From assembly GCA_033763455.1 (NCBI GenBank), contig JANRKO010000019.1, forward strand, positions 1 to 64,000: 64,000 bases of DNA, written 5' to 3'. Under the pieces are notes generated by a model. The model did not search any database. It was not told where the DNA came from and saw nothing but the letters and a program-made list of their open reading frames with translations. How positions within the stretch are numbered: position 1 is the first letter of the stretch; each line of letters begins with the position of its first letter. The DNA is from Polyangiaceae bacterium. GTDB taxonomy: Bacteria > Myxococcota_A > Polyangia > Polyangiales > Polyangiaceae. Shown piece by piece: positions 1,727 to 62,720 of this stretch. Both the position numbers and the translations under genes were made by a program.

Positions 1727-2227
1727 TCAGAGTCGGGTGACGGGCGACGGGACAAAGGCGTCTAGGTTCACACAGCCGTAGTGTATTGTTGCGGTGCCCA
1801 TCCCAAGGCTGTTCGGGTCGTCCGCGGTTCTCTGCATCACGACACCCCCGGATGGGTTGAGAATTCGGAGCGAGGTTGGCGTAACAGTGTAGGCCACCGT
1901 TTCCGGGTCATGGTTCCGATCCGATTGCAGACATGATGCGAGGGTGGGCGCGAAGTCGATAACCTCGCCGTCGGTCGAGAATATTCCTCCTTCCGCCTCA
2001 ACCGCCCAACTGCCGTCCCTGAGCTCACAAATCTTATCAAGTTCGTATTGGTTGTCTAAGTTGAAGCTCGCTCCAATGAGACATCCCGACATACTGGTAA
2101 GCGGAGCAAACCACTTGCCTATCAACGCCTCCCGCGGGTCGTCCTGGCCGCCCCCGTTGCCGACCGAACTGCCACTCCCACACGCAGTCAACATCACCGC
2201 AGCGACCAACATCCCCATTCTTTTCAT
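1727..2227 (-). CDS. Hypothetical lipoprotein
   Basis: Start moved to MKRMGMLVAAVMLTAC (lipobox LTAC) followed by a Gly/Ser linker. Confidence 0.7.
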   Translation of the reverse strand: MKRMGMLVAAVMLTACGSGSSVGNGGGQDDPREALIGKWFAPLTSMSGCLIGASFNLDNQYELDKICELRDGSWAVEAEGGIFSTDGEVIDFAPTLASCLQSDRNHDPETVAYTVTPTSLRILNPSGGVVMQRTADDPNSLGMGTATIHYGCVNLDAFVPSPVTRL

Positions 2228-2382
2228 TGAAGCCTCCAACAGATCAGGCTCGCATTGGAGCGAGTCGGAGTCAACCTTTCGGCCAAGACCTACGCCCCAA
2301 GTCAACTGCTGACCCCCACCAAGTAGAGTCACGCGTTCACGTTCCGGCGAGACCTGCGACGCAAGCTCACCGCCCGCGAACG

Positions 2383-2640
2383 CGAGATTTCGACGAGAGC
2401 GCTTACACGCTGCCTGTGGACTTCCACAGGTGGCGCCGGGCGTTCACTCAAGCGCTAGCCGATGCGGATGTGAACATCCAGCAGGCAACGGCCCTTGCCG
2501 CCCGCGCTGCCCTTGCCGCCCATGGCCGCTACTTGGCGAGCTCCGGCCGCATGAGCAAGTTGCCCGAAGCGGCGCTGCCGGCAATTAAGGCACAGCCCGT
2601 GCCTAAACTCGGGAAGCTCCCCCAATCCGAAACATCGAAT
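2383..2640 (+). pseudogene. C-terminal remnant of a tyrosine recombinase/integrase
   Basis: LPVDFHRWRRAFTQALADADVNIQQATALAARAALAAHGRY: HxxR box and catalytic Tyr region; no N-terminal domains; points at the 3' end of tRNA-Pro. Confidence 0.6.
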
Positions 2641-2656
2641 CAGCAAGAATTAAGGG

Positions 2657-2730
2657 TCGGGGTGAGTGGATTTGAACCACCAACAACCGGCACCCAAAGC
2701 CGGTCCTCTACCAGGTTGAGGTACACCCCG
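2657..2730 (-). tRNA. tRNA-Pro(TGG)
   Basis: Cloverleaf: CGGGGTG acceptor stem, anticodon arm CCGGC-TTTGGGT-GCCGG, GGTTCAAATCC T-loop; CCA not encoded (CCC follows). Confidence 0.93.
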
Positions 2731-2786
2731 AAAATCGGGAGGGCGATTTCTACTGGCACGCGGGGGGCAGCGCAAGGGGTGAAAGT

Positions 2787-3109
2787 TCAGTCGGGGATGG
2801 GCGTAAGCTCAACATCCAAGAAAATTGGCTCGCGATCGGAGACCACGAGCTGATCCCAAGGGAAATATCCTGATTTTGTGACACTTACGCGGTGCTCACC
2901 CTGAGGCAGGCGAACACCGTGCGCCGCAACGTAGCCGAGAGGGCCGATGTATTCTTCGTCGATGACGACAGACGCGTCAGCTGGAGTGTGAGCTGTGCTC
3001 CGAAGCTTCAAATCCACGGCGGGGCGCAGGGTGGGGCCACAAGCAAAAAGCAGCCCCGCACATGCCAAACAGGCAGCGCTTCGCCTGAGGTAGCGCGGGG
3101 AAAATAGCA
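2787..3109 (-). CDS. PEGA-domain lipoprotein
   Basis: Lipobox LFAC; TPADASVVIDEEYIG...GEHRVSVTKSGY PEGA pattern; GTG start just after guaA stop (approximate). Confidence 0.75.
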
Positions 3110-3114
3110 CGCTC

Positions 3115-4665
3115 TTATTCCCACTCAATGGTGGCGGGAGGCTTCGAACTGATGTCGTAGGCCACGCGGTTAATGCCACGAACTTCGTTGATGATACGCG
3201 AACTGATGGTGGCGAGCACTTCATGGGGAATTCTAGCCCAATCCGCCGTCATTCCGTCCGTTGAGGTGACGGCGCGCACCACGCAGGTTTCTTCGTAAGT
3301 TCTGTCGTCACCCATTACGCCAACGCTTCGTACTGGCAAAAGTACGCCGAATACCTGCCAAATGGATTCGTAGAGGCCCGCCGCACGGATCTCTTCGTCG
3401 ATGATGACCTCGGCCTGCCGGAGCACCTGCAAGCGCTCGTGGGTCACCTCGCCCAGGCAGCGCACCGCAAGCCCGGGGCCGGGGAAGGGATGGCGCCACA
3501 ATACGTCGTGGGGCATGCCCATGGCTTCACCCACAGCTCGCACTTCGTCCTTGAAGAGCTCACGGAGGGGTTCGATGAGCTTGAGCTTCATTTTCTCGGG
3601 CAGGCCGCCGACGTTGTGGTGGCTTTTGATCACGGCGCTTGGTCCTTTAACGCTCACGCTCTCGATGACGTCGGGGTAAAGAGTTCCTTGAACCAGGTAA
3701 GCGGCGTTCTGGATGTCACGGGCATGTTCGTCGAACACTTCGATGAAGACGCGCCCAATAATCTTTCGTTTCTTTTCGGGGTCCGTAACGCCAGCCAAAG
3801 CTGTGAGGAATTGTTCACGGGCATCTACGGCCCGGAGGTTCACCTTGAAGCTCTCTTTGATGGTGTGGCTTACGGTCTCGAACTCGGAGGCTCGCAGCAA
3901 ACCATTGTCTACAAAGATACAAATGAGGCGGTCGCCCAGCGCTCGGTGGCACAATACAGCCGCTACTGCCGAATCTACGCCGCCGCTCAGGCCGCAGATC
4001 ACGCGTTCGTTCGGGCCCACTTGCGCCTGAATACGCGCGATGGCGTCGTCCACGAAGGAGCCTGGGGTCCAATCGGGTTTGAGCCCCGCGACCTCGAACA
4101 GAAACGAGCGGAGGAGTTCCACGCCGCGGGGCGTGTGCGCGACCTCAGGGTGAAACTGAATTCCGAAGATCTTCCGTTCAAGATTGGCTATGGCCGCGAA
4201 CGGGGCGTTGTCGCTCTCGCCGATAACCTGAAACCCAGGTGGGAGCGCGGTTAGGCGATCGCCGTGACTCATCCAAACGCCTAGTTGTTCGTCTCTTTGA
4301 AAAGGCGAAAGGATGCCAACGGGTTCAAAAACGCGCAGCTTGGCGGGGCCGTATTCGCGCTGTTCGCTCGGCTCTACCTTGCCGCCGAGCTGCTGGCTTA
4401 AAAGCTGCTGGCCGTAGCAGATGCCGAGCACGGGAATACCCATATCGAATAGGCCGGGATCGCTCTTTGGGCTGTCTTTGCCGTAAACACTCTGCGGCCC
4501 ACCGCTTAAAATGATGGCACTTGGCGCCAAGCTCTTCAGCTTCTCTAGGCTTATCGTGCACGGGTGGATCTCAGAATATACGTGGCACTCACGGACACGC
4601 CTCGCGATGAGCTGTGTGTACTGAGAACCGTAGTCCAAGATGATGACGGATTGGCGCGAACTCAT
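3115..4665 (-). CDS. guaA: GMP synthase (glutamine-hydrolysing)
   Basis: [51 protein letters not shown]. Confidence 0.98.
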
Positions 4666-8541: not shown

Positions 8542-10839
8542 TCAAGCTTTAACCAACGAAAGCCGAGGTGCCGCGCCGAAGGCCGCAAGATGGCCGCTTT
8601 CCTCGGCCACGTACACATCCGAGCGATCGTCGACCCGCACCAGATCAGGAACCAGATCGGTGGGAACGGTTCCCAGCATTTCTCCTGTTTTGGGCTGCAT
8701 CACGTGTACTTGATGTTGGGGTACGAAGAGAACGCCGCTCCGCAGTACGGGCTGCAACCTCCGGGGCTGATCCGCCTCCACCTGGTGGGAAAAGGCGTGA
8801 GAAAAACGCACTGCACCGGTATTGGCGTCTAGCCCCACCAACATGCCGGTGCTGCTATTGGCTATCAGCGTATCGTCGACAGACGTAAAAGCCGTCGTGA
8901 CTGAGCCCAGCCCAGGATCCTGTTCCCAAGCGGCGCTTCCTGTGTCACGCCGGAACGCCTGGGCACCGGTGCCTCGACGATCTCGGGTGGGAACAATAAC
9001 GGTCGTCGAAGTCAGAAGGGGGAGCTGACCGGCAAGAGGGGACGTATTGATCTCTTCAGTCCAGCGTACGGCACCTGACCAAAGATCGAGGTGGTAGATC
9101 TTTGCGGGCCCCACAGGCCCTCCGCAGATCGCGAAGGCCCCATCGCGATCGAGCGCAATGTCTCCGGTAAAGGGGAGCCTTTCGCGCACCCTCCACACGA
9201 CGTCGCCGGTTGTGACATCAAGGGCAAAAAGCGCAGAATCTCCGCCTGAAACTAGGAGCAGTTTTCCCGCGCGCTTCATGCGAAAGTTTGCCGCCCTCCG
9301 CGACGTGTAACGCCAGCAGAGCTCGCCGCTCTGAAGATCCAGCGCACAAATGGAGCGTTCGCCTTCGGCGACAATCAGAAGTTTCGGCAGCCCAGGGGCG
9401 TGAACAACGGCGCCGCTCGGGGTACCGCTGGAGCGCGGCGCAATGAACGTTCCAAAGCGAACATTGCCGGAGTCGAGTTCGTGGAGGCACACGAGCCCAT
9501 CTTGATGCCAACGCACCACGCCGAGCGGAGTGAGCACGGTTACGCCCGGGCGAGTGGCTGCACGCCACATAATGTCTCCGCTTTGCGAGTCGAGGCTGCA
9601 CAATTCGCGTGCGGCACCGACCACTATGCGATCCCCGTGAAGGAATACCGCTCTTAGATCCAACGTCGGGACCGCTGCCACCCAGCGAGCCATGAAGCGC
9701 ATCCTGCCGGTGGCTGTTCCTTGGGGGGAAGCCTTGGGTGTGGCAGGCAGGCCAAAGGCGCGATAATTCTCTGCATTCGCATTGATCAAGGAGTCGTCTG
9801 CTAAAAACTCGGTGAGCTGCTCTTGGAGCCGCTGTGCCTGATTTTGCAGATTCACCAGCCGAAGGTTCTGCGCTTGGCCGGCGTCGGATGCCTGAAAAGC
9901 ATCGACGAGGCTGAGTGCGAACGCAGTGGCAGTTTGCGCGAGCTCCAGAGGGCTGATCTTGGGGAACGTGAGCGCTCCACTCTTGCTGGGCCCGGATACC
10001 GTAAGCCGGAGCGTGTCTTCAATATGTGTCCGTTGGATCCCCAAACGAAGGGGTGCGCAGTCGACTCGACGAAATAGCGGCCGGTGGGAGCGCATGGCGT
10101 CGAAGACATCCTCCCCGAGCAACAAGAAGCACTCGGCGAACAGAAAGGGATACACGCCTGTGAACTCGTAGTCGCGTCGGTGTGCCGTCACGGTAAGAAC
10201 ACCTCGACACAGAAGCGCGTGAAGATCGGTACGCTCAAGCCGTTCGCCCGACGGTGCGCCTTCTCTAGAACGAGGCTGCGGTGCGCGAACCTCAGTCTTG
10301 AGGGACACCCCGAAGTCCGCATTGTCGCGGGCGACGATTTCAACGGGTACCGTGCGGCGTCGTGCACGTCCGGCGAAAGGGCGGGCTCGTCCCAACGTCC
10401 TTCGTGCACTCAGCAACGCTCCCGTTAGACCACGTGGTGCTTCGGCTATGCGCGCCTCATCAAGCAGCTGCGTGAGCACTTCAGTAAAGGCTGCCAGCGT
10501 TACCCGACGTTCGAACATGCCGACTTCAGGAGAACGCCCGGTGGTGTAACTCGACAGCAGTAGATCCTCGCCGTCCACCTCAAGCCCCAACTCCCAGGGT
10601 TGGTCACTTGCATAAAGACGAATACTGCGGCGAAGCGCGCTGCCGGTGCCAAGCGCCATGACCGCTTGGGAGACTTCAGCAAGTACACCGAAGGCGTCTT
10701 TGTCGGTCTGTTCCATCGCCTGGCTATTGCCCTCAAAGAACCAATCCAAGAGGGATCCAAGCGGGCCCGGTGATTTGACGCGGTCGGAGGGGGACGGTTG
10801 TGGGGCTACAACGTGTAGGGCGGTCATCGGTGAGCCCAT
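8542..10839 (-). CDS. PQQ-like beta-propeller repeat protein
   Basis: Repeated ALDxxxGxxxW motifs (SLDSQSGDIMWR, ALDLQSGELCWR, ALDVTTGDVVWR). Confidence 0.85.
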   Translation of the reverse strand: MGSPMTALHVVAPQPSPSDRVKSPGPLGSLLDWFFEGNSQAMEQTDKDAFGVLAEVSQAVMALGTGSALRRSIRLYASDQPWELGLEVDGEDLLLSSYTTGRSPEVGMFERRVTLAAFTEVLTQLLDEARIAEAPRGLTGALLSARRTLGRARPFAGRARRRTVPVEIVARDNADFGVSLKTEVRAPQPRSREGAPSGERLERTDLHALLCRGVLTVTAHRRDYEFTGVYPFLFAECFLLLGEDVFDAMRSHRPLFRRVDCAPLRLGIQRTHIEDTLRLTVSGPSKSGALTFPKISPLELAQTATAFALSLVDAFQASDAGQAQNLRLVNLQNQAQRLQEQLTEFLADDSLINANAENYRAFGLPATPKASPQGTATGRMRFMARWVAAVPTLDLRAVFLHGDRIVVGAARELCSLDSQSGDIMWRAATRPGVTVLTPLGVVRWHQDGLVCLHELDSGNVRFGTFIAPRSSGTPSGAVVHAPGLPKLLIVAEGERSICALDLQSGELCWRYTSRRAANFRMKRAGKLLLVSGGDSALFALDVTTGDVVWRVRERLPFTGDIALDRDGAFAICGGPVGPAKIYHLDLWSGAVRWTEEINTSPLAGQLPLLTSTTVIVPTRDRRGTGAQAFRRDTGSAAWEQDPGLGSVTTAFTSVDDTLIANSSTGMLVGLDANTGAVRFSHAFSHQVEADQPRRLQPVLRSGVLFVPQHQVHVMQPKTGEMLGTVPTDLVPDLVRVDDRSDVYVAEESGHLAAFGAAPRLSLVKA

Positions 10840-10901
10840 GGTATGTAGGTTCTTCTGAGTGCCCCAGTTTTGAGACAGGATTGCTGAGGATTGGACAACT
10901 G

Positions 10902-12341
10902 ATGCGTATTCGAGTTAGGCGCCAAACGCTCAAAGGGGCCGCCCTCGCGTTGCTCGCAGGTGTTCCAATCAGTCTCGCACTGTTTGGATTTACAGTGGAT
11001 GATGCGCTCATAAGTATTCGAGTGGCGCAGCATCTGGCCACAGGTTCGGGGTATCGCTTCAATAGCGGTGGACCTGTAGTCGATGCGGTAACTCCGCTCG
11101 GGTGGGCTCACGTACTCACCTTGCTTTACAGCGAAGATCCTTGGGAAATGCTGCTTTCGGCGCGCGTGTTCGGCCTGCTCGCTTGGTGGGTGGCGCTGGT
11201 GCTTCTGGGGCGCAGAGTGGCGGGCGTCGGCGAAACGTGGCGGCGCTGGTTGCCTCTTTTGCCCCTTGCTGTGTCCGCACCGTTGGCGGTTTGGAGCAGC
11301 TCCGGCATGGAGACGGGAGTGGTTACGCTTCTGGCGGTACTCGCGCTTAGCGAACAGCGCAGTGCTTTATGGTTTGCGGGGCTTGCGGCGGCGTGGCGCC
11401 CAGAGCTCTTGGGGTGGGCCTTGGTCTTGGGCTTAGGTCGCGGATGGGGTGCTACCGCTGGTTTTAATGAATCGGGCTTTGGGCGCTTTGGGCTCGCACT
11501 GGGCAGAGTGGTCGGCCCTTTCATTGCTGTAGCCTTCGTACGTGTTTTGATATTTGGCCAAGCCGCACCGCTCAGCGCCATCGCTAAACCAACAGACCTG
11601 CAACAAGGATTGTTCTACGCGGCGCATGCCTTCGTCTGGACGGGCTTTCCGGTACTGCTTTTTACCCGCCAGTTGCAGGGCCTCTCTCCAGAACTCCGCG
11701 CGATTGCGGTTGCGGGAGTCTCGCACTTTGGGTTCGTCGGATTGGTAGGAGGCGATTGGATGGCGCTCTACCGTTTGGTGGTGCCAGTGTTGCCGGGCCT
11801 CGTGCTGGTTGCGGCGGCCCTCTTGGACAAAGCCCGTGCGTGGAGTGTCAGCATTCGTTTGGTGTTTGCCTGTGCTCTGAACACGGTATTGTTGGTTCAG
11901 TTGGGTCCAAGTTCCCGTCGCATCGCTGAGCAGCGTGCGTTCCTTTCCGAACAAGCTGAGCCCTTCCTGAATTTTGGCGGAACCGTTGGAACGCTGGATG
12001 TGGGGTGGGTGGGAGCAGCCACGCAGGGGACCGTTTTCGACTTCGCAGGGGTGACCGATCCTGTAGTGGCTCGCCTTTGCTGCGGGCACCACGCCAAGAA
12101 AATCGATCACCACCTGCTGGAAGTGCGAGGCGTGGATACGCTCGTGCTCTTGCTTGCTCCCGGGAAGAATATGCAAACACCCTGGTGGCAAAGTGAGTTC
12201 GCTCGCTTTAGTGAAAACTACGTCGCGCGCCAGCTGAAGGAAGACGTTTGGCTGTCCGTGGCAGAGCTCCCGTTAAAATACACGGATCAAAAATACGTCA
12301 TCTTGCGACGCTCGGTCACGCGGTTCGCGGCACTGCCGTAA
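10902..12341 (+). CDS. Polytopic membrane protein, GT-C glycosyltransferase-like
   Basis: VDDALISIRVAQHLATGSGYRFN, SGMET, RPE, GGDWM motifs; many TM helices. Confidence 0.7.
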   Translation: MRIRVRRQTLKGAALALLAGVPISLALFGFTVDDALISIRVAQHLATGSGYRFNSGGPVVDAVTPLGWAHVLTLLYSEDPWEMLLSARVFGLLAWWVALVLLGRRVAGVGETWRRWLPLLPLAVSAPLAVWSSSGMETGVVTLLAVLALSEQRSALWFAGLAAAWRPELLGWALVLGLGRGWGATAGFNESGFGRFGLALGRVVGPFIAVAFVRVLIFGQAAPLSAIAKPTDLQQGLFYAAHAFVWTGFPVLLFTRQLQGLSPELRAIAVAGVSHFGFVGLVGGDWMALYRLVVPVLPGLVLVAAALLDKARAWSVSIRLVFACALNTVLLVQLGPSSRRIAEQRAFLSEQAEPFLNFGGTVGTLDVGWVGAATQGTVFDFAGVTDPVVARLCCGHHAKKIDHHLLEVRGVDTLVLLLAPGKNMQTPWWQSEFARFSENYVARQLKEDVWLSVAELPLKYTDQKYVILRRSVTRFAALP

Positions 12342-53280: not shown

Positions 53281-55254
53281 CTACGCGCCGCGCAGCGTCA
53301 CCGTGCTGAGCGGGTCAATGCCCAAATCTTCCGAAAGATCGTTGAAGCACACCACGTGGTAATCGGGGTGCTCGGTGGCTAGCAGCTTTCTTACGAAGCG
53401 GCGGATGCTTGGTTGAGTGAAGATGACAGTGGGGCGGCCCTCTGCTGGCGGTGAGGTTTGAATGGTCTTAGCGACGGCCCGCACGATGTCCCTGCCGGTT
53501 GCTGGGGAGAGTGCCAGGAACTGCCCTGCGTTGGTTTTTACAAGAGCATCTTTGATAGCCTGTTCGATGGTGGCATCGAGCAAGTAAACGCCGAGGCGCT
53601 TATGTTCTCCGCTTAGGCGATGCGTGGTGCTGCGTTTTAGGGCACTGCGAGCGAGCTCGGCGAGCTCTGCCGGTGGGCGCTCGTTGCCGGGGGCTTGAGT
53701 GAGGGCGTCTAGAATGGTGCGAAGATCCCGAATGCTCACCTTTTCTTGAACGAGTGAGCGAAGAACCTCAGCCAACACGGGAACATCTGCCGGTTTGGGT
53801 AGCTGACGAGCTCCCGCGGTGCTCACACTCTGAAGTGCGTCCAAAAGCGATTGGGTCTCCGTGATGTTGATGAAATCCCCGGCGCGCTGCTTGAAAATCT
53901 CGACCAACTCCGCCGTTAGCCAGGACGCTAACGTGTCCAGATCTCTAATCTCAGTCGGCAAAGTAGCGCGCTTTAACGGCACTTCGTGGACGGAGAACAG
54001 AACTTCGTCCGGGCCGAGCTCGGGGGCAACCTGCAGCGTGCCGGTCGGGATGGCGACTCCGAGCTCGGAAAATATGAGGGCTCGGGCGGAAGCAACTGCA
54101 CGAGTCAACTCGGAGTTGTTGCTCTCGGTGGGGCGTACTCCGCCGCCAAGATGCAAAATCGGGTCCCGCCCGAAACTCACAGACCATGGCACCACCACCG
54201 GCAAGAACCGCGGCTCGCCGTTTACCCAGTCCACGGGCGCGGTCACCTTCGCACTTGGAGTGCGCAAAAGGGTGCGGCTCCGTGCGCGGGAAGCTGCCAA
54301 AAGTAGCACTCCGATAACCAGGAAAGGCAAAGCCGGAAGCCCTGGAATTGCCGCCAAAAGCAGGATGAGCGCGCCGGCGGCGGCTAGAGCTTTCGGTTGC
54401 CCCAGCAATTGTCCCGCCAGATCGGTCCCGAGCGATGTTTCTCCCTCTTCGCTGGCAACACGCGTCACCAAGATGCCGGCTGCTGTCGTAATAACCAACG
54501 CGGGGATCTGCGCGACCAAGCCATCCCCGATGGTCAGCAACCCGTAGCGCTTCAGGGCCACGAGCGGGTCCAGGTGCTGCTGCCCCACGCCAATGGCAAG
54601 GCCTGCCCCAATGTTCACGAGAGTGATCACGAGCGCCGCGATGGTATCCCCCTTCACGAACTTCATCGCTCCGTCCATCGCTCCGTAAAATTGGCTCTCC
54701 CGTTCGAGTCGCTGGCGGCGGCGCTTCGCTTCCGCGTTATCGATCGCTCCCGAGCGGAGATCGGCATCGATGGCCATTTGTTTTCCCGGCATCGCATCGA
54801 GCGTGAAGCGGGCACCCACTTCAGCGACCCGTTCGCTCCCCTTGGCGATCACCACAAACTGAATGATCGTCAAGATCAGGAAAATTACGGCTCCCACGAC
54901 GTAGTTGCCCCGCACCACAAAGCTGCCAAACGCATGGATCACCTCGCCGGCGTCAGCCTGCAGCAGGATCAGCCGGGTGGAGGAAACGTTGAGGGCCAAG
55001 CGGATCAGCGTGGTAATCAGCAAAACGCTAGGAAAAGCCGCAATCTTGAGTGCGTTGGCGACGTACAAAGATACTAAAAGAATGGCGACGGAAATGCCCA
55101 GGTTGGCCGTGAGCAACAAATCCAAGAGCCACGTGGGCAGCGGCACAATCATGAGCCCCACCACGCTGAGCACCACTGCGCCCAGCACCAGATCTGGAAG
55201 ATGGAGCTTCTTTTGGGGCAGCGGCGGCGAGAGCTTGGCGAGGGAAGGGAGCAT
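53281..55254 (-). CDS. FlhA/SctV-family type III export gate protein
   Basis: RLALNVSSTRLIL, ERVAEVGARFTLDAMPGKQMAIDADL, FYGAMDGAMKFVKGD, IGDGLVAQIP, VSIRDL. Confidence 0.95.
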   Translation of the reverse strand: MLPSLAKLSPPLPQKKLHLPDLVLGAVVLSVVGLMIVPLPTWLLDLLLTANLGISVAILLVSLYVANALKIAAFPSVLLITTLIRLALNVSSTRLILLQADAGEVIHAFGSFVVRGNYVVGAVIFLILTIIQFVVIAKGSERVAEVGARFTLDAMPGKQMAIDADLRSGAIDNAEAKRRRQRLERESQFYGAMDGAMKFVKGDTIAALVITLVNIGAGLAIGVGQQHLDPLVALKRYGLLTIGDGLVAQIPALVITTAAGILVTRVASEEGETSLGTDLAGQLLGQPKALAAAGALILLLAAIPGLPALPFLVIGVLLLAASRARSRTLLRTPSAKVTAPVDWVNGEPRFLPVVVPWSVSFGRDPILHLGGGVRPTESNNSELTRAVASARALIFSELGVAIPTGTLQVAPELGPDEVLFSVHEVPLKRATLPTEIRDLDTLASWLTAELVEIFKQRAGDFINITETQSLLDALQSVSTAGARQLPKPADVPVLAEVLRSLVQEKVSIRDLRTILDALTQAPGNERPPAELAELARSALKRSTTHRLSGEHKRLGVYLLDATIEQAIKDALVKTNAGQFLALSPATGRDIVRAVAKTIQTSPPAEGRPTVIFTQPSIRRFVRKLLATEHPDYHVVCFNDLSEDLGIDPLSTVTLRGA

Positions 55255-57317: not shown

Positions 57318-57463
57318 GGCGCCTTCTAGCCTCGGGTTTAGCGGTTTTCTTGGCCGTGCACCGAGGCTTCCGGTAGCGATTCAGGGCACACACGGATGTT
57401 CAAAGCGCTTTGCCGCGTTCCTTGAACATCGAACGTGCCCCACCGCACTCGAAGGAGCAACCA

Positions 57464-58531
57464 GTGAAGAAACAGAAGCGCATCGCCGTCCTCATGGGTG
57501 GCACGTCAGCTGAACGTGAAGTCTCCCTCAAGTCAGGGCAGGCGATTGCGGCGGCCTTAGAGGCCTCTGGCCACGCCGTGGTGCGCGTAGATCTTGGCTC
57601 CGGCAAAGATGTGCTTTCTGCGCTCAGCAAAGTGGAGATGGATGTAGCCGTGCTGGCGTTGCATGGCCGCCTCGGAGAAGATGGCTGCGTGCAGGGTCTC
57701 TTGGAAGTGCTGGGGGTGCCTTACACGGGCTCCAGCGTGCTTTCCAGCGCATTGGCGATGGATAAGGTGAAGGCCAAGGAGCTCTTTCGCCTCCACAATA
57801 TCCCCACGCCGCCCTACTACGTGGTCACCGATCCTCTCGGTGTGCGCGAGTTGCACGGTTCTTTCGGCTTCCCGGTGATTGTAAAGCCTCGGCGTGAAGG
57901 CTCCAGTGTTGGTCTCGCCAAGGCCAATAGCCTCGAAGAACTGGAGGCAGCTGTGAAGGTGGCCTTCGAGCACGATAGCTCGGTGTTGGTTGAGCGCTTT
58001 GTGCAAGCCAGCGAAGTGGCCGTTGGCCTTTTGAACGGCAAGGTGCTGGGCGCCATCGAGATCGCCCCGAAGAAGGGCATTTACGACTACGAAGCCAAAT
58101 ACACACCGGGCATGACCGAATATTTCCTGCCGGCACGCCTATCCAACGCACGCCTACGGGGTATTACTCACTTAGCAGAGCGCGCGGTGCAGGCCTTGGA
58201 AGCCACGGGCGCCGTACGTGTCGATCTTCTCGTCACCGAAGGTCAGAACGAATACGTGCTCGAGGTGAATACGCTCCCAGGCATGACCGAAACGAGTCTG
58301 CTCCCCAAGATTGCAGGATGGGCAGGGCTTGGCTTCGCAGAGCTTTGCGAGGCTATTGTCGACACTGCTACGCTGCACACGCACGCCCCCGCTGGTCAGC
58401 GCAAAGCACGCGCCACCGAAGTTGATACAGACGGCGAATTCGGTTTGTCTCAAGCGGCTGTGGCTGAGTTCGAACTCGAAGACGATCGTTATGAAGTCAC
58501 CGAACACGACTTCATCGCAGCCGTAGGTTGA
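57464..58531 (+). CDS. ddl: D-alanine--D-alanine ligase
   Basis: GGTSAEREVSL, LHGRLGEDG, EGSSVG, YDYEAKY, EVNTLPGMT. Confidence 0.96.
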   Translation: MKKQKRIAVLMGGTSAEREVSLKSGQAIAAALEASGHAVVRVDLGSGKDVLSALSKVEMDVAVLALHGRLGEDGCVQGLLEVLGVPYTGSSVLSSALAMDKVKAKELFRLHNIPTPPYYVVTDPLGVRELHGSFGFPVIVKPRREGSSVGLAKANSLEELEAAVKVAFEHDSSVLVERFVQASEVAVGLLNGKVLGAIEIAPKKGIYDYEAKYTPGMTEYFLPARLSNARLRGITHLAERAVQALEATGAVRVDLLVTEGQNEYVLEVNTLPGMTETSLLPKIAGWAGLGFAELCEAIVDTATLHTHAPAGQRKARATEVDTDGEFGLSQAAVAEFELEDDRYEVTEHDFIAAVG

Positions 58532-58703: not shown

Positions 58704-58780
58704 GTCCCCGTCGTCTAGCCGGCCCAGGACACGGCCCTTTCAAGGCTGTAACACGGGTTCAAATCCCGTCGGGGACGCCA
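58704..58780 (+). tRNA. tRNA-Glu(TTC)
   Basis: GTCCCCG acceptor stem, anticodon loop CTTTCAA, GGTTCAAATCC, ends GGGGACGCCA. Confidence 0.95.
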
Positions 58781-58850: not shown

Positions 58851-59342
58851 ATGAGCGACCCCAATCGACGTGCATTTCTGGGCGGCGCGGCCTTATTAGC
58901 CATTCCGGCGCTGGTTGAGAACTGCGGGGAGGGGACGGCTGTTGGCAAGAGCGCGGATGAGCGCGTCGCTGAGCTCATCGCGTTGAGCCGCGACCAGCAC
59001 GGCAAGCCGCACGTGGCGCGGGTGGCATTCCTCACGCCTGAGCGCACCAGCGGGACGCTTCCTGTTTCGGCCGCGGAGGCCGCTGATCTTCGGGCGGTGC
59101 TCGCTTCGGGTGATTTTAAGCTCTTCCAAGAACGGGGCCTACGCTTCGACAACAAGAAGTTCGTGTACATCCGTGAGAGTGAGGAGGGCACCGTGGTGCA
59201 CGCGGTGCGGCGCGGGGAGTTCGTAACGATTCGCAAGGCTCGCAGTGAGCTTGTGGTGGCAACCAGTGTGGACGGGATGGCGCACCCGCGCGCTGTCGAA
59301 GCCGTTTACCAGTACGTGCAACGCTCCGCGGCAATCGCCTGA
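58851..59342 (+). CDS. Profilin-like protein with twin-arginine signal peptide
   Basis: NRRAFLGG plus hydrophobic stretch; EAADL...GLRFDNKKFVYIR...VTIRKARSELVVA...GMAHPRAVEAV follows the profilin pattern; GAAGG RBS. Confidence 0.72.
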   Translation: MSDPNRRAFLGGAALLAIPALVENCGEGTAVGKSADERVAELIALSRDQHGKPHVARVAFLTPERTSGTLPVSAAEAADLRAVLASGDFKLFQERGLRFDNKKFVYIRESEEGTVVHAVRRGEFVTIRKARSELVVATSVDGMAHPRAVEAVYQYVQRSAAIA

Positions 59343-59356
59343 AGTTAGGAATAAGA

Positions 59357-60037
59357 ATGCACAAGCTTCAGCTCACACTGGCCGCACTGCTTTTTTGCGT
59401 ATTCGCCGCTGGCACAGCCAGCGCTGGAAGCTGCGAGCAGGAAGTGGTGGCAGAGTGCGTTGCCAATTCCTGCCCTACCTTTTGCAGGACGCTCGCCGAA
59501 GGCCACGTGGAGGCATGTAAGGTAGGGTGCACGGCACAAGATCGCTGTAAGCTTGCTCTATTTGGCGGCCAAGACCGCCCGGCGCAGGTCGAGCTGGATG
59601 CGCAGAAGCGCGAGCAGCTCATGAGTTGCCTCGCAGAGAACCGCAAGCAACCTGTCGTACCCAAGGAGCTCGGCAAACCGATCCGCACTGAGGCGGATTA
59701 CGTCGCCCCCTCTGAAGCGAAGACGAAAGCCGTCAAGCGCAGCAGCCTTAAGAACACCAAGGCAAGCAAGGCGGCGTGGAAAGCCCGCAAAGCTCGCTCA
59801 TTTGCTGAGCGCAAAGTTGGTTCAAAGCGCAAGGATCCGCTCACCTACGTGCCCCCGGCTGGGCCTGTGAAGTCTCCCCCGAGGCCTCCGCTTCCGAGGT
59901 CAGCACCTCCCGGGCCAATGCCGCCCAAGCCGATGCCACCGAAGCCGATGCCTCCCAAGCCCCGCCCACAGCCAGCGCCGCCGGCGCAAAGCCCGAGCGG
60001 CCAGCAGGCACCGAGTCCGGCGCCCGCGAGCCCCTGA
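59357..60037 (+). CDS. Secreted Cys-rich, basic, proline-rich protein
   Basis: Sec signal (ASA cleavage), 8 Cys, Lys/Arg-rich middle, (PMPPK)x3 Pro-rich tail; AGGA RBS; 14 nt after the profilin-like stop. Confidence 0.8.
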   Translation: MHKLQLTLAALLFCVFAAGTASAGSCEQEVVAECVANSCPTFCRTLAEGHVEACKVGCTAQDRCKLALFGGQDRPAQVELDAQKREQLMSCLAENRKQPVVPKELGKPIRTEADYVAPSEAKTKAVKRSSLKNTKASKAAWKARKARSFAERKVGSKRKDPLTYVPPAGPVKSPPRPPLPRSAPPGPMPPKPMPPKPMPPKPRPQPAPPAQSPSGQQAPSPAPASP

Positions 60038-60076: not shown

Positions 60077-61237
60077 TCAGAAGCACTTGCGGTGCACGAT
60101 CCCCGGGCCTGCCTCGTCGTACTCAGCCTTGGTGATCCACATCTGCTGGAAGGTGCTCAGGCTCGCAAGGATGGAGCCACCGATCCATACCGAATATTTG
60201 CGCTCGGGGGGCGCGATGACTTTGACCTTCATCGTTGGGGGAGCCAGGTTGGTCAATTCCTTTTGCATACGCTCGGCAATCCCAGGGAACATCGTGCTGC
60301 CGCCAGCCAGCACGAGGTTGCTGTATAGATCCGCGCGGATATCGACGTCGCACTTCATGATCGAGTTGTACGTGGTCTCGTGGATCCCCACGGCCTCCAT
60401 GCCCAAAAAGCTGGGTTGGAAGAGCGCTTCGGGGCAACGGAAGCGCTCGTTCCCGATCGTAATAACCTGCCCGTCCGGGAGCTCGTAGCTCTTTTCCAGA
60501 CTGCTTGAACTCGCTGCTGTCTGCATCTCCGCGTCAAAGTCTAGGGCTACGTAGGCGAGCTTCTCCTTGATATCTCGAACGATCTCACGCTCTGCAGTTG
60601 TCGTGAAGGAATAGCCTCGCTCAGTCAGAATCTTCATTAGGTAATCAGTGAGGTCGCGGCCTGCGAGGTCGAGCCGCAGGATCGCGTGGGGTAGGGCGTA
60701 ACCCTCGTAGATGGGCACCGTGTGGGTTATCCCGTCGCCACAGTCGAAAACCAATCCGGTGGTGCGCCCCGAAGCGTAGAGGGCAAGTACGGCCCCCATC
60801 GCCACGTACATGGCGGGCGTATTGAACGTTTCGAACATAATTTGCGTCATCTTCTCACGGTTCGCCTTGGGATTGAGCGGGGGTTCCGTGAGCAACACGG
60901 GGTGTTCTTCTGGCGCCACGCGCAGCTCGTTGTAAAACGCGTGGTGCCAGATCTTCTCCATGTCGTCCCAGTTGGTGACGATGCCGTGTTCGATCGGATA
61001 CTTGAGCGTCAAGATCCCGCGCTTGGCCTGCGCCTCGTCGCCCACGTAAGCGTCTTTCTGGCCCATCCCCACCATCACCCCCTGGTGGCGTGGGCGGCCT
61101 ACGATGCTCGGGAATACCGCCCGCGGCGCGTCGTCGCCAGCGAAGCCGGCCTTAATCATCCCTGAACCGTTGTCGACGACTAGGGCTTGGACTTCGCCCT
61201 CGGTTTGTCCGAGGACTGGGCTGGGAACGAGGGGCAT
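60077..61237 (-). CDS. Eukaryote-type actin
   Basis: [79 protein letters not shown]-terminal IVHRKCF; intronless, 386 aa. Confidence 0.99.
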
Positions 61238-61313: not shown

Positions 61314-62720
61314 CTAACCGCTCGCTTCGCATGACCGCTGGATGGCCGAGTAGTGAGCATGTGCGGCGCGCAACATATGCTCATGCTCCGGGCTGAATGT
61401 ATCGATAATATCGAGGGCCCCCACCGGCCCAGCGCGGAACGCCAGCCAATCAGCCAGCATCCCACGCGCGCGCGCCTCGCCCGATACTGACAGCTGGAGT
61501 TCTTCCCTCCACACATCCGCCACTGATGCGATCCCCAAACGATCGAGCTCATCAGCATCGAGCGCATACCAGCGAGCCCGCTTCAGGGCCTCGCTCACAT
61601 CTCCATGAGCCACGGTCACCTCGATCGCGCGCTCAGGATCCGCGAGCAGCCATACCAACTTATCGCGTCGGAGCGGAGCGTCCTTTGGCAGCGGAAAGGC
61701 CAGCTTGGCTCGCTCACCATCCGGTGGCCCAGGCACAACGAACCCAGCGTAGACCCAGCGCTCCGTTGGCGTACGGCGCCCGTAAAACATCCGAACCGCC
61801 TCGCCCGCAGTGTAGTTCATGCCGGCAACTGCACGCAGAGAGTTGCCCTCTAGGAATGTGCTCTCGGCGCCCAGCGTTTCGTCGTGGTCCAGCAGATCCC
61901 AAAGCGGCACCAGGGCGAGCTCATCGGGTACGGCGGTTTGGCGGGACGAAAGGATCGCCCCTGCCCAAAGCCAACGCTGCAGCGTGAACGCCTCGAGCGG
62001 TAGCGGGCGTTTGGCGGGCTCCGTCAGCCGTAAGCGGTGGTGCGCGATGCAATAAAGCTGCAGCACTCCGGCGAGGAAGCTTCTTCCCATGTTTGCAGCC
62101 ACGAGGTGTGAGCCAGGCGAACGCGGCCAGCTGAGCGCCGTTCCGGCCACTTCTCCGGGCAGCGCTGCAACATAAGGTGCCCACGTGTTGGTAGCCTCGT
62201 TTACGTAGCGGGCCCGGAGCAACCAAAGCATCAAATTGCCTGGCCCGAAAAGCGGTGCTTCTTGGAGCCATGGGCCCAATATCGGATCAGCGAAAACGTC
62301 GCCGTTGCGCAACATCGCACTCAACGGCACCTCAACCAACGTGGCGCCCCTGGCGATTGGCGCTGTCGCCTTAACGCTTGCACCCTTGGGTGTTGCGAGC
62401 AAACGCAGCCCGGGCGCGAACCGAACGCCGTGCAAGGCCGCCCACGCGGCCAGTGCATCTAACGCCTGTTGAGATACCGGGAGCGATGGTGGATCCATGG
62501 GTTGGCACTTTTGCACCAACGCCGAAGCTTCGTGCAAATCAGGGAGTTCGAAGCTCTCCGCGTCCCAGGCCACGGCACGCCGAAGCCCGGCGATGCGCGC
62601 GAGCAGATGGGCAAGATCATCGATCGCCGTTTGCGCCTGCGCCTCGGAAGAGGCTTCGTTGGGGGAGTCGGGTTCCAGGTGATCATCTGAGCTAAGGGCG
62701 GGGAGCGGAACAAGTGGCAA
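61314..62720 (-). CDS. SETD3-like SET-domain methyltransferase (Rubisco-LSMT class)
   Basis: KATAPIARGATLVEVP, WAPYVAALP, FTLQRWLWA...SSRQ, LALVPLWDLLDH, GEAVRMFYG, GFV; TTG start uncertain. Confidence 0.8.
   Translation of the reverse strand: MPLVPLPALSSDDHLEPDSPNEASSEAQAQTAIDDLAHLLARIAGLRRAVAWDAESFELPDLHEASALVQKCQPMDPPSLPVSQQALDALAAWAALHGVRFAPGLRLLATPKGASVKATAPIARGATLVEVPLSAMLRNGDVFADPILGPWLQEAPLFGPGNLMLWLLRARYVNEATNTWAPYVAALPGEVAGTALSWPRSPGSHLVAANMGRSFLAGVLQLYCIAHHRLRLTEPAKRPLPLEAFTLQRWLWAGAILSSRQTAVPDELALVPLWDLLDHDETLGAESTFLEGNSLRAVAGMNYTAGEAVRMFYGRRTPTERWVYAGFVVPGPPDGERAKLAFPLPKDAPLRRDKLVWLLADPERAIEVTVAHGDVSEALKRARWYALDADELDRLGIASVADVWREELQLSVSGEARARGMLADWLAFRAGPVGALDIIDTFSPEHEHMLRAAHAHYSAIQRSCEASG

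Follow-up and report, generated by a model that had tools for sequence, protein, structure and literature searches.

Profilin is a defining cytosolic regulator of eukaryotic actin; copies of it in bacteria are very rare, and all characterised profilins are cytosolic. The nearest described system to the one treated here is the PfnM/ActM pair of Microcystis aeruginosa PCC 7806, in which a eukaryote-type profilin that binds actin and an actin are encoded on a genomic island (PMC3254629). In 2012 the Microcystis protein was regarded as the only known prokaryotic homologue of profilin; it is described as intracellular and 84% identical to a eukaryotic profilin, and the paper does not contain the word 'periplasm' (PMC3254629). 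In addition, a eukaryote-like actin, BARP, has been reported from the myxobacterium Haliangium ochraceum (PMC3035250), and the word 'profilin' is absent from that report. The present work concerns a stretch of 64,000 nucleotides of myxobacterial DNA, hereafter the window (Polyangiaceae bacterium, GenBank assembly GCA_033763455.1, contig JANRKO010000019.1, positions 1 to 64,000), and within it the open reading frame (ORF) at 58851-59342 (+), whose product carries a twin-arginine translocation (Tat) signal in front of a profilin domain. This protein belongs to a family of at least 25 representatives (E <= 1e-10), in which profilin appears to have been refitted with an export signal for folded proteins and is genetically tied to a near-eukaryotic actin.

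A second line of comparison is offered by the Tat hitch-hiker pairs, which include HybO/HybC and MelC1/MelC2. Likewise, in PaoABC the small subunit PaoA bears the Tat signal and carries signal-less partners (PMC4273604), and in a flavin adenine dinucleotide (FAD) glucose dehydrogenase a small 'hitchhiker protein' with a Tat signal carries the signal-less partner (PMC6719666).

Judged by its sequence and its predicted structure, the product of ORF 58851-59342 is a profilin of eukaryotic descent. The Pfam family Profilin (PF00235) matches residues 66-155 with an E-value of 4.8e-7 and 30.4 bits (cut-off 25), and it is matched by all 26 aligned family members, with a best E-value of 7e-13. An AlphaFold model built from nine sequences leaves residues 1-33 disordered and arranges residues 37-162 as a helix (37-46), a seven-strand sheet and a second helix (146-162); its mean predicted local distance difference test (pLDDT) score is 75.8, with block values of 77-91 over residues 41-160. 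When this model was compared with the PDB using Foldseek, ranks 1-38 were all profilins, with template-modelling (TM) scores by target of 0.65-0.80, and the Roadblock and LAMTOR/Ragulator folds ranked after them, with TM by target of at most 0.53. Sequence searches of the PDB were non-significant, since phmmer with the single profilin sequence found no profilin and the profile A1 reached profilins at E 0.15-0.69; it is thus Pfam and Foldseek that support the fold assignment. An earlier note on this DNA, made from the letters alone, had proposed a profilin-like domain behind the signal, and this domain has turned out to have a true profilin fold. A generic roadblock domain is rejected, the profilin call having two independent lines behind it, the Pfam score and the Foldseek ranking.

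The N-terminus of the precursor reads MSDPNRRAFLGGAALLAIPALVENC, the first 25 residues being those given in the earlier note. It holds a Tat motif of the S/T-R-R-x-F-L-K type, N-R-R-A-F-L-G, at residues 5-11 (NRRAFLGG), with the two arginine codons at 58866-58871, and continues with the h-region AFLGGAALLAIPALV, a run of 15 uncharged residues with a mean Kyte-Doolittle hydropathy of 2.2, after which ENC follows. The h-regions of the relatives comprise 15-29 uncharged residues with a mean Kyte-Doolittle value of 0.6-2.1. The arginine pair (RR) is located at residues 3-10 in 25 of the 26 aligned members, in columns that are at least 90% conserved, and the sole member lacking it, P0011, is apparently truncated. 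Even where identity between family members falls to 28%, RR and h-region are still kept. Furthermore, each of the five related genomic loci, as well as genome G492, has an RR motif in frame, and this conservation, together with that in the family, rules out a start downstream of RR. Both the twin-arginine motif with its h-region and a start upstream of it had been read from the single sequence, and both stand. The hidden Markov models (HMMs) of Tat signals PF10518 and TIGR01409 each match 12 of the 26 members (best E 4.6e-5 and 0.0014, respectively), and one relative bears the NCBI name of a twin-arginine signal domain protein. The host genome encodes TatC (E 3e-65, contig C47) and a TatA/B/E family protein (E 5.8e-15, contig C73). 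On these sequence features it is likely that Tat exports the profilin, and removal of the signal by signal peptidase I, or its retention as an anchor, appears more likely than lipid modification.

Concerning the extent of the family, a word-indexed search returned 8 relatives, and an exhaustive profile search of 1.84 billion protein representatives gave 57 matches at E <= 1e-3, 25 of them at E <= 1e-10. Thirty-three matches were judged to be of bacterial type, 26 of which were aligned (alignment A2); left out were P0007, which has a long upstream extension containing RRSFLGG, and the N-terminally incomplete P0008, P0019, P0025, P0028, P0031 and P0037. The family profile matches 2 of the 401 genomes in the class sample and 4 of the 401 in the phylum sample, including G000 and the signal-less copy of G484. 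Scans for further metagenome loci with A1 and P0003 yielded none that was confirmed, A2 offers no stretch of sufficient conservation for such a scan, and the gene context is known for 8 genomes. The next-best profile matches are proteins of about 130-140 aa that start with MSWDSYIDNL; two of them bear the source names Lytechinus pictus and Sanderia malayensis, a sea urchin and a jellyfish.

A profilin tree was computed from 56 rows, comprising 29 sequences that bear the signal, 2 bacterial ones that lack it and 25 of eukaryote type, by a quick search with no bootstrap; the signal columns had been removed, and fragments and rows outside 120-210 aa dropped. A single branch, with a Shimodaira-Hasegawa-like approximate likelihood ratio test (SH-aLRT) value of 98, separates the 29 signal-bearing rows from all others, and therefore a single acquisition of the signal suffices to explain the data. 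It appears from the sequences that one myxobacterial lineage turned a eukaryote-derived profilin into a Tat substrate. As for signal-less bacterial profilins, G484, a myxobacterium of another family, encodes a metazoan-type profilin starting with MSWDSYIDNL at about 9965-10381 (-) (locus L041, G484:C87), which may be similar to the form that preceded acquisition of the Tat signal. The actin of G484 lies on a contig other than that of the profilin, and the ORFs next to the profilin gene have no Pfam matches. In locus L025 (G261:C584) a signal-less full-length profilin (3213-3722, -; Pfam E 5.6e-14) stands directly upstream of an actin (2060-3157, -), with a gene for a DsbA-like thioredoxin at the other side of the actin gene (1231-1923, +); the Pfam scan of this neighbourhood covered 69 of 70 ORFs.

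Polyproline binding was probably lost in the Tat-profilin clade. In an alignment with eukaryote-type profilins, SWDSY aligns to ADERV or TDPRV and the loop of the third Trp is deleted; the clade thus has D or P at the W3 position, V or R at the Y6 position, and no Trp-bearing loop (W31). These three residues, together with aromatics of the C-terminal helix, form the polyproline-binding site of profilin, and in the helix of the window profilin Y153 and Y155 are retained. The lack of the W-x-x-Y aromatics, suspected earlier from the one N-terminus, is hence seen in the alignment.

The profilin gene belongs to a four-gene eukaryote-like block that stands after housekeeping genes (Ddl, 57410-58531) and a tRNA gene, with the following features:

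58704-58780, + strand: tRNA-Glu, anticodon TTC (ARAGORN), directly 5' of the profilin gene, at the left edge of the eukaryote-like block.
58851-59342, + strand: Tat-signal profilin precursor, 163 aa, ATG start (ORF, Pfam Profilin, fold model).
58851-58925, + strand: signal region, residues 1-25, with the n-region bearing RR (codons 58866-58871), the 15-residue uncharged h-region and E-N-C.
58956-59339, + strand: profilin domain, residues 36-163, with N-terminal helix 37-46, beta-sheet and C-terminal helix 146-162 (AlphaFold, Foldseek).
59357-60037, + strand: Cys-rich protein with a general secretory (Sec) signal, 226 aa (ORF), 14-nt gap after the profilin gene, read as co-transcribed.
60077-61237, - strand: eukaryote-type actin, 386 aa, signal-less (Pfam Actin), convergent with the profilin operon.
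61314-62720, - strand: SETD3-like SET-domain protein, 468 aa, signal-less (phmmer against the PDB), upstream of the actin gene on the same strand.

The actin (Pfam Actin, E 2.4e-148) is a single copy in the genome. Its best PDB match is the major actin of Dictyostelium (E 5.2e-235), from which it differs at 36 of 372 aligned residues, corresponding to about 90% identity. Its N-terminus shows no hydrophobic signal-like stretch, in agreement with the earlier description of the actin as lacking a signal peptide. Searches with tblastn found profilin, the 226-aa protein and actin together in loci L001-L004, the Cys-rich gene being kept between the other two. In L002-L004 the order is profilin, Cys-rich gene, actin, all on one strand, with gaps of 20-30 nt in L003, while in G492 the actin lies 40 bp from the Tat-profilin. 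An actin is found within 2 kb in all six genomes with an intact Tat-profilin, as against the presence of an actin in 12 of the 401 class-sample genomes, and this adjacency holds even though the actin gene is inverted between loci. In L005 (G401, about 9880-10510) the Tat-profilin is frameshifted, its sequence being split over three reading frames; in this 9.5-Mb genome no actin was detected with the actin query used, and neither a Cys-rich gene nor a SETD3-like gene was found. The case represents either decay of the whole module or an assembly error.

The Cys-rich protein has a Sec-type signal that ends in A-S-A before G. Its mature part holds 8 invariant Cys, the motif AWK..SF is conserved in its basic tail, and its end is Pro-rich. 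It matched no family of Pfam or NCBIfam, the Atlas gave no usable match, 3 relatives were found, and its AlphaFold model (pLDDT 54.6) was too poor for a fold search. Because of the Tat signal on the profilin and the Sec signal and 8 Cys on its neighbour, two of the three core products appear to be built for the extracytoplasmic space. The Pro-rich end begins at 59852 (59852-60034, +), with PMPPKP occurring three times from 59915; it is strong in the window genome only, and much weaker or absent in the relatives. Such a tail is odd beside a profilin lacking the polyproline site.

The interaction of the two proteins was modelled from an actin alignment and profilin residues 34-163. Three runs reached interface scores (ipSAE) of 0.88, 0.87 and 0.88, compared with 0.01 for the best control; in calibration, 116 of 157 solved complexes attained the mark, as did 2 of 215 mismatched pairs. 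The runs had at least 92% of their contacts in common, and the pLDDT of the partners was at least 88. On actin the predicted contacts are residues 177-185, 295-300, 360-366 and 380-386, which become 166-174, 284-289, 349-355 and 369-375 after subtraction of an 11-residue N-terminal offset, and the latter positions are those of the classical barbed-end profilin site. On profilin the contacts fall at residues 48-54, 89-96, 103-124 and 141-153, and the signal-bearing N-terminal helix 37-46 is outside the predicted interface. Modelling with actin had been named as a check in the earlier note, and it places the profilin domain on the canonical profilin site. We consider it likely that the Tat-profilin binds its own actin.

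The mechanism we prefer is co-export, the hitch-hiker idea of the earlier note. The profilin precursor would fold in the cytoplasm and bind monomeric actin via its canonical face, covering the barbed-end groove, by which polymerisation in the cytoplasm would be blocked too. The free N-terminal signal and the flexible linker would present this 1:1 complex of about 57 kDa to TatBC, profilin and actin would cross the inner membrane jointly, as in the known hitch-hiker pairs, and in the periplasm they would meet the Sec-exported Cys-rich partner. We infer this whole chain, including the co-export of actin, and put it forward as plausible and tentative. Co-export is to be expected insofar as the Tat precursor has in the cytoplasm a ligand of high affinity, encoded at its own locus, and it fits with the strict linkage to the own actin, with an operon that specifies a second exported protein, and with the one case in which profilin and actin are lost together. 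A more speculative extension, which we regard as doubtful, is an extracytoplasmic actin system, in which the profilin carrier would hold actin in monomeric form inside the cell and deliver ATP-actin to the periplasm, and filaments would form there with the disulfide-rich Sec-exported partner. If true, periplasmic filaments could shape outer-membrane extensions or serve predation, and no cell would have shown an actin cytoskeleton outside its cytoplasm before.

A number of points weigh against co-export and the steps leading to it. With respect to the fold, one of five AlphaFold profilin models is confident (75.8) and the other four score 45-47. The window profilin itself is not among the matches of PF10518 or TIGR01409, and it shows no obvious AxA cleavage site after the h-region. 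The score of the complex may reflect likeness to solved structures, because profilin and actin are a textbook pair, and the conservation of the interface is 0.62 compared with 0.57 for the rest of the domain, a non-significant difference (permutation p = 0.15). The joint-loss case is one metagenome-assembled genome of unestablished completeness, and no Tat-profilin of the A2 type was found in 11 actin-flanking stretches of 10 other actin-bearing genomes in the class sample. The location of actin outside the cytoplasm rests on inference, and cytoplasmic action is the ancestral state, given that the profilins of L025 and G484 are signal-less. Finally, the periplasm has no ATP supply, and dynamic actin turnover is hard to picture there.

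Some of these points favour the main rival to co-export, according to which the profilin is exported alone by Tat and acts outside, perhaps with the Cys-rich protein, and not on its own actin. It could bind actin set free by the lysis of eukaryotic prey, or a new ligand other than actin, while the own actin would remain cytoplasmic and the gene linkage would be a leftover of joint transfer. Besides the lack of ATP in the periplasm and an interface that is not specially conserved, such a reading agrees with the fact that many fast-folding proteins without cofactors have Tat signals, and that for a cytosolic domain from a eukaryote the route would in any case have to be Tat and not Sec. Moreover, the myxobacterial actins that stand beside signal-less profilins, or whose flanks have no A2-type profilin, imply a cytoplasmic role of actin in relatives. 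However, export of the profilin alone leaves aside the adjacency of the own actin in all six intact cases despite the actin inversions, the one-strand order in L002-L004 with the operon-like gaps in L003, and the occurrence of the sole broken Tat-profilin in a genome in which the search for actin was negative. It also runs counter to the principle behind hitch-hiker selection systems, by which a Tat-signal protein with a high-affinity cytoplasmic ligand is expected to carry that ligand. We therefore retain co-export as the preferred mechanism and consider solitary export of the profilin rather unlikely, albeit a serious competitor.

It is also conceivable, if improbable, that the N-terminus serves as an uncleaved signal-anchor or membrane-targeting device, and that a flexible linker rich in Ala, Pro and Thr tethers the profilin to the inner membrane, where it would organise actin or the Cys-rich partner and would not become a free, soluble protein of the periplasm. 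This would be consistent with the lack of a clear AxA site after the h-region of the window profilin and with the linkers of 10-35 residues that separate h-region and profilin domain in many relatives. It is also in line with the Microcystis actin/profilin pair, which forms a shell under the cell envelope (PMC3254629). On the other hand, in P0009, P0022, P0030 and P0040 AxA-like sites immediately precede the domain, with hardly any linker, which suggests cleavage and release.

Very unlikely is the view that the N-terminus is not a working export signal at all and that the protein is an ordinary cytoplasmic profilin regulating actin, like PfnM of Microcystis. The cytosolic nature of the characterised profilins, together with the failure of both Tat-signal HMMs to match the window protein, speaks for it. 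It is contradicted by the retention of RR and h-region in 25 of 26 members down to 28% identity, by the 12 members that match each of these HMMs, by the position of the signal-less bacterial profilins outside the Tat clade, and by a neighbouring Cys-rich gene that is also built for export. Least credible of all is a Tat-exported lipoprotein acylated at Cys25 and anchored in the membrane, as the 'non-canonical lipobox' of the earlier note would have it; a Cys does follow the h-region of the window profilin, but V-E-N-C misfits the pattern [LVI][ASTVI][GAS]C, no canonical lipobox is seen among the 25 relatives with RR, 3 of the 26 members, one of them the window profilin, were flagged as having a Cys ahead of the domain, and Cys25 is missing in the closest relatives.

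The fourth gene of the block may bear on the history of the actin. A search of the PDB by phmmer with the protein encoded at 61314-62720 gave SETD3 in 10 of 10 matches (E 1.8e-15, residues 90-344), and a Pfam scan gave no SET family at E <= 1. Being SETD3-like in sequence, the protein would belong to the actin-histidine N-methyltransferase family, and the target His of SETD3 is kept in the window actin as H84. Of the five related genomes searched, one, that of L001, proved to have the gene. Its presence suggests that an actin-specific modifying enzyme came along with the transferred actin genes.

Some further observations were made on the actins. At codon 148 (60794-60796, -) the window actin has A-M-G-A-V, compared with A-I-Q-A-V in eukaryotic actin and in 4 of 5 aligned relatives, and the actin of L003 has A-T-P-P-V at this site. 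The Gln in question is Q137, which is needed for ATP hydrolysis; because it is replaced in the window and in L003, 2 of the 6 aligned actins may hydrolyse ATP poorly. In L029 (G192:C6, locus 9329-11421) an actin gene stands between genes for a Y2-type transposase and a phage-type integrase, which suggests mobile DNA as the location of some myxobacterial actins. In the window, the actin ORF (61211-61237, -) and the SETD3-like ORF (62694-62720, -) both start with M-P-L-V-P-x-P-x-L. DNA alignment and a repeat search showed no duplicated 5' region behind this common MPLVP start, the motif is absent from the relatives, and the likeness is probably due to chance or to a miscalled TTG start of the SETD3-like ORF.

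As regards the wider locus, the window has 59% G+C and is part of contig C19 of a 6.56-Mb draft genome in 92 contigs; the nearest relatives that bear a name are metagenome-assembled myxobacteria under the labels Kofleriaceae or Myxococcales. The G+C content of the block equals that of its flanks, with no composition anomaly. A promoter and terminator scan returned 0 promoter-like sites and 3 terminator-like sites, compared with 4.4 expected by chance. A FHIPEP gene (FlhA/SctV-type export gate; 53281-55254, -) adjoins genes for a FIST-domain protein and a PP2C phosphatase. Export of actin by a type III route was considered and set aside: no other secretion-system genes stand near this FHIPEP gene, which lies 3.6 kb upstream, within the window, and the N-terminal extension of the actin is unconserved.

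In the literature covered (open-access full text and bioRxiv), no description of a Tat-signal or myxobacterial profilin and no account of SETD3 in myxobacteria were found. The family shows a bacterial reworking of transferred eukaryotic cytoskeletal genes, in bacteria that figure in debates on the origin of eukaryotes. It makes testable the question of whether a bacterium can export actin from its cytoplasm, and it puts on offer a natural and compact, putative Tat carrier-cargo pair.

Compared with known systems, the locus resembles PfnM/ActM in combining a horizontally gained bacterial profilin with a eukaryote-type actin in genes that lie side by side. It differs in that the window profilin is 12-21% identical to solved profilins in Foldseek alignments, and in having a family-wide Tat signal, lost polyproline aromatics and a gene for a Sec-exported partner. 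The metazoan 'MSWDSYIDNL' profilins, which are the nearest non-bacterial matches of the family profile, have the same fold and core motifs, whereas they are cytosolic and signal-less and keep W3, Y6 and the third Trp. The profilins of Asgard archaea are likewise prokaryotic and bind eukaryotic actin, and OdinProfilin with rabbit actin (5zza) occupies Foldseek rank 42; however, their structural match to the window profilin is weaker than that of plant or yeast profilins, and they are not known to have an export signal. In the hitch-hiker pairs the sole RR signal is that of a small subunit, whose gene neighbours that of a larger partner without a signal, and the two form a complex before export. 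Here it is the profilin that has the signal and the actin that lacks it, and their genes stand next to each other in all 6 genomes in which the Tat-profilin is intact. Two family members match the NCBIfam model of MelC1 weakly (E 0.026), presumably in the signal region. The known hitch-hiker pairs are redox or copper enzymes, whereas the cargo proposed here, in what would be a putative co-export, is a cytoskeletal protein.

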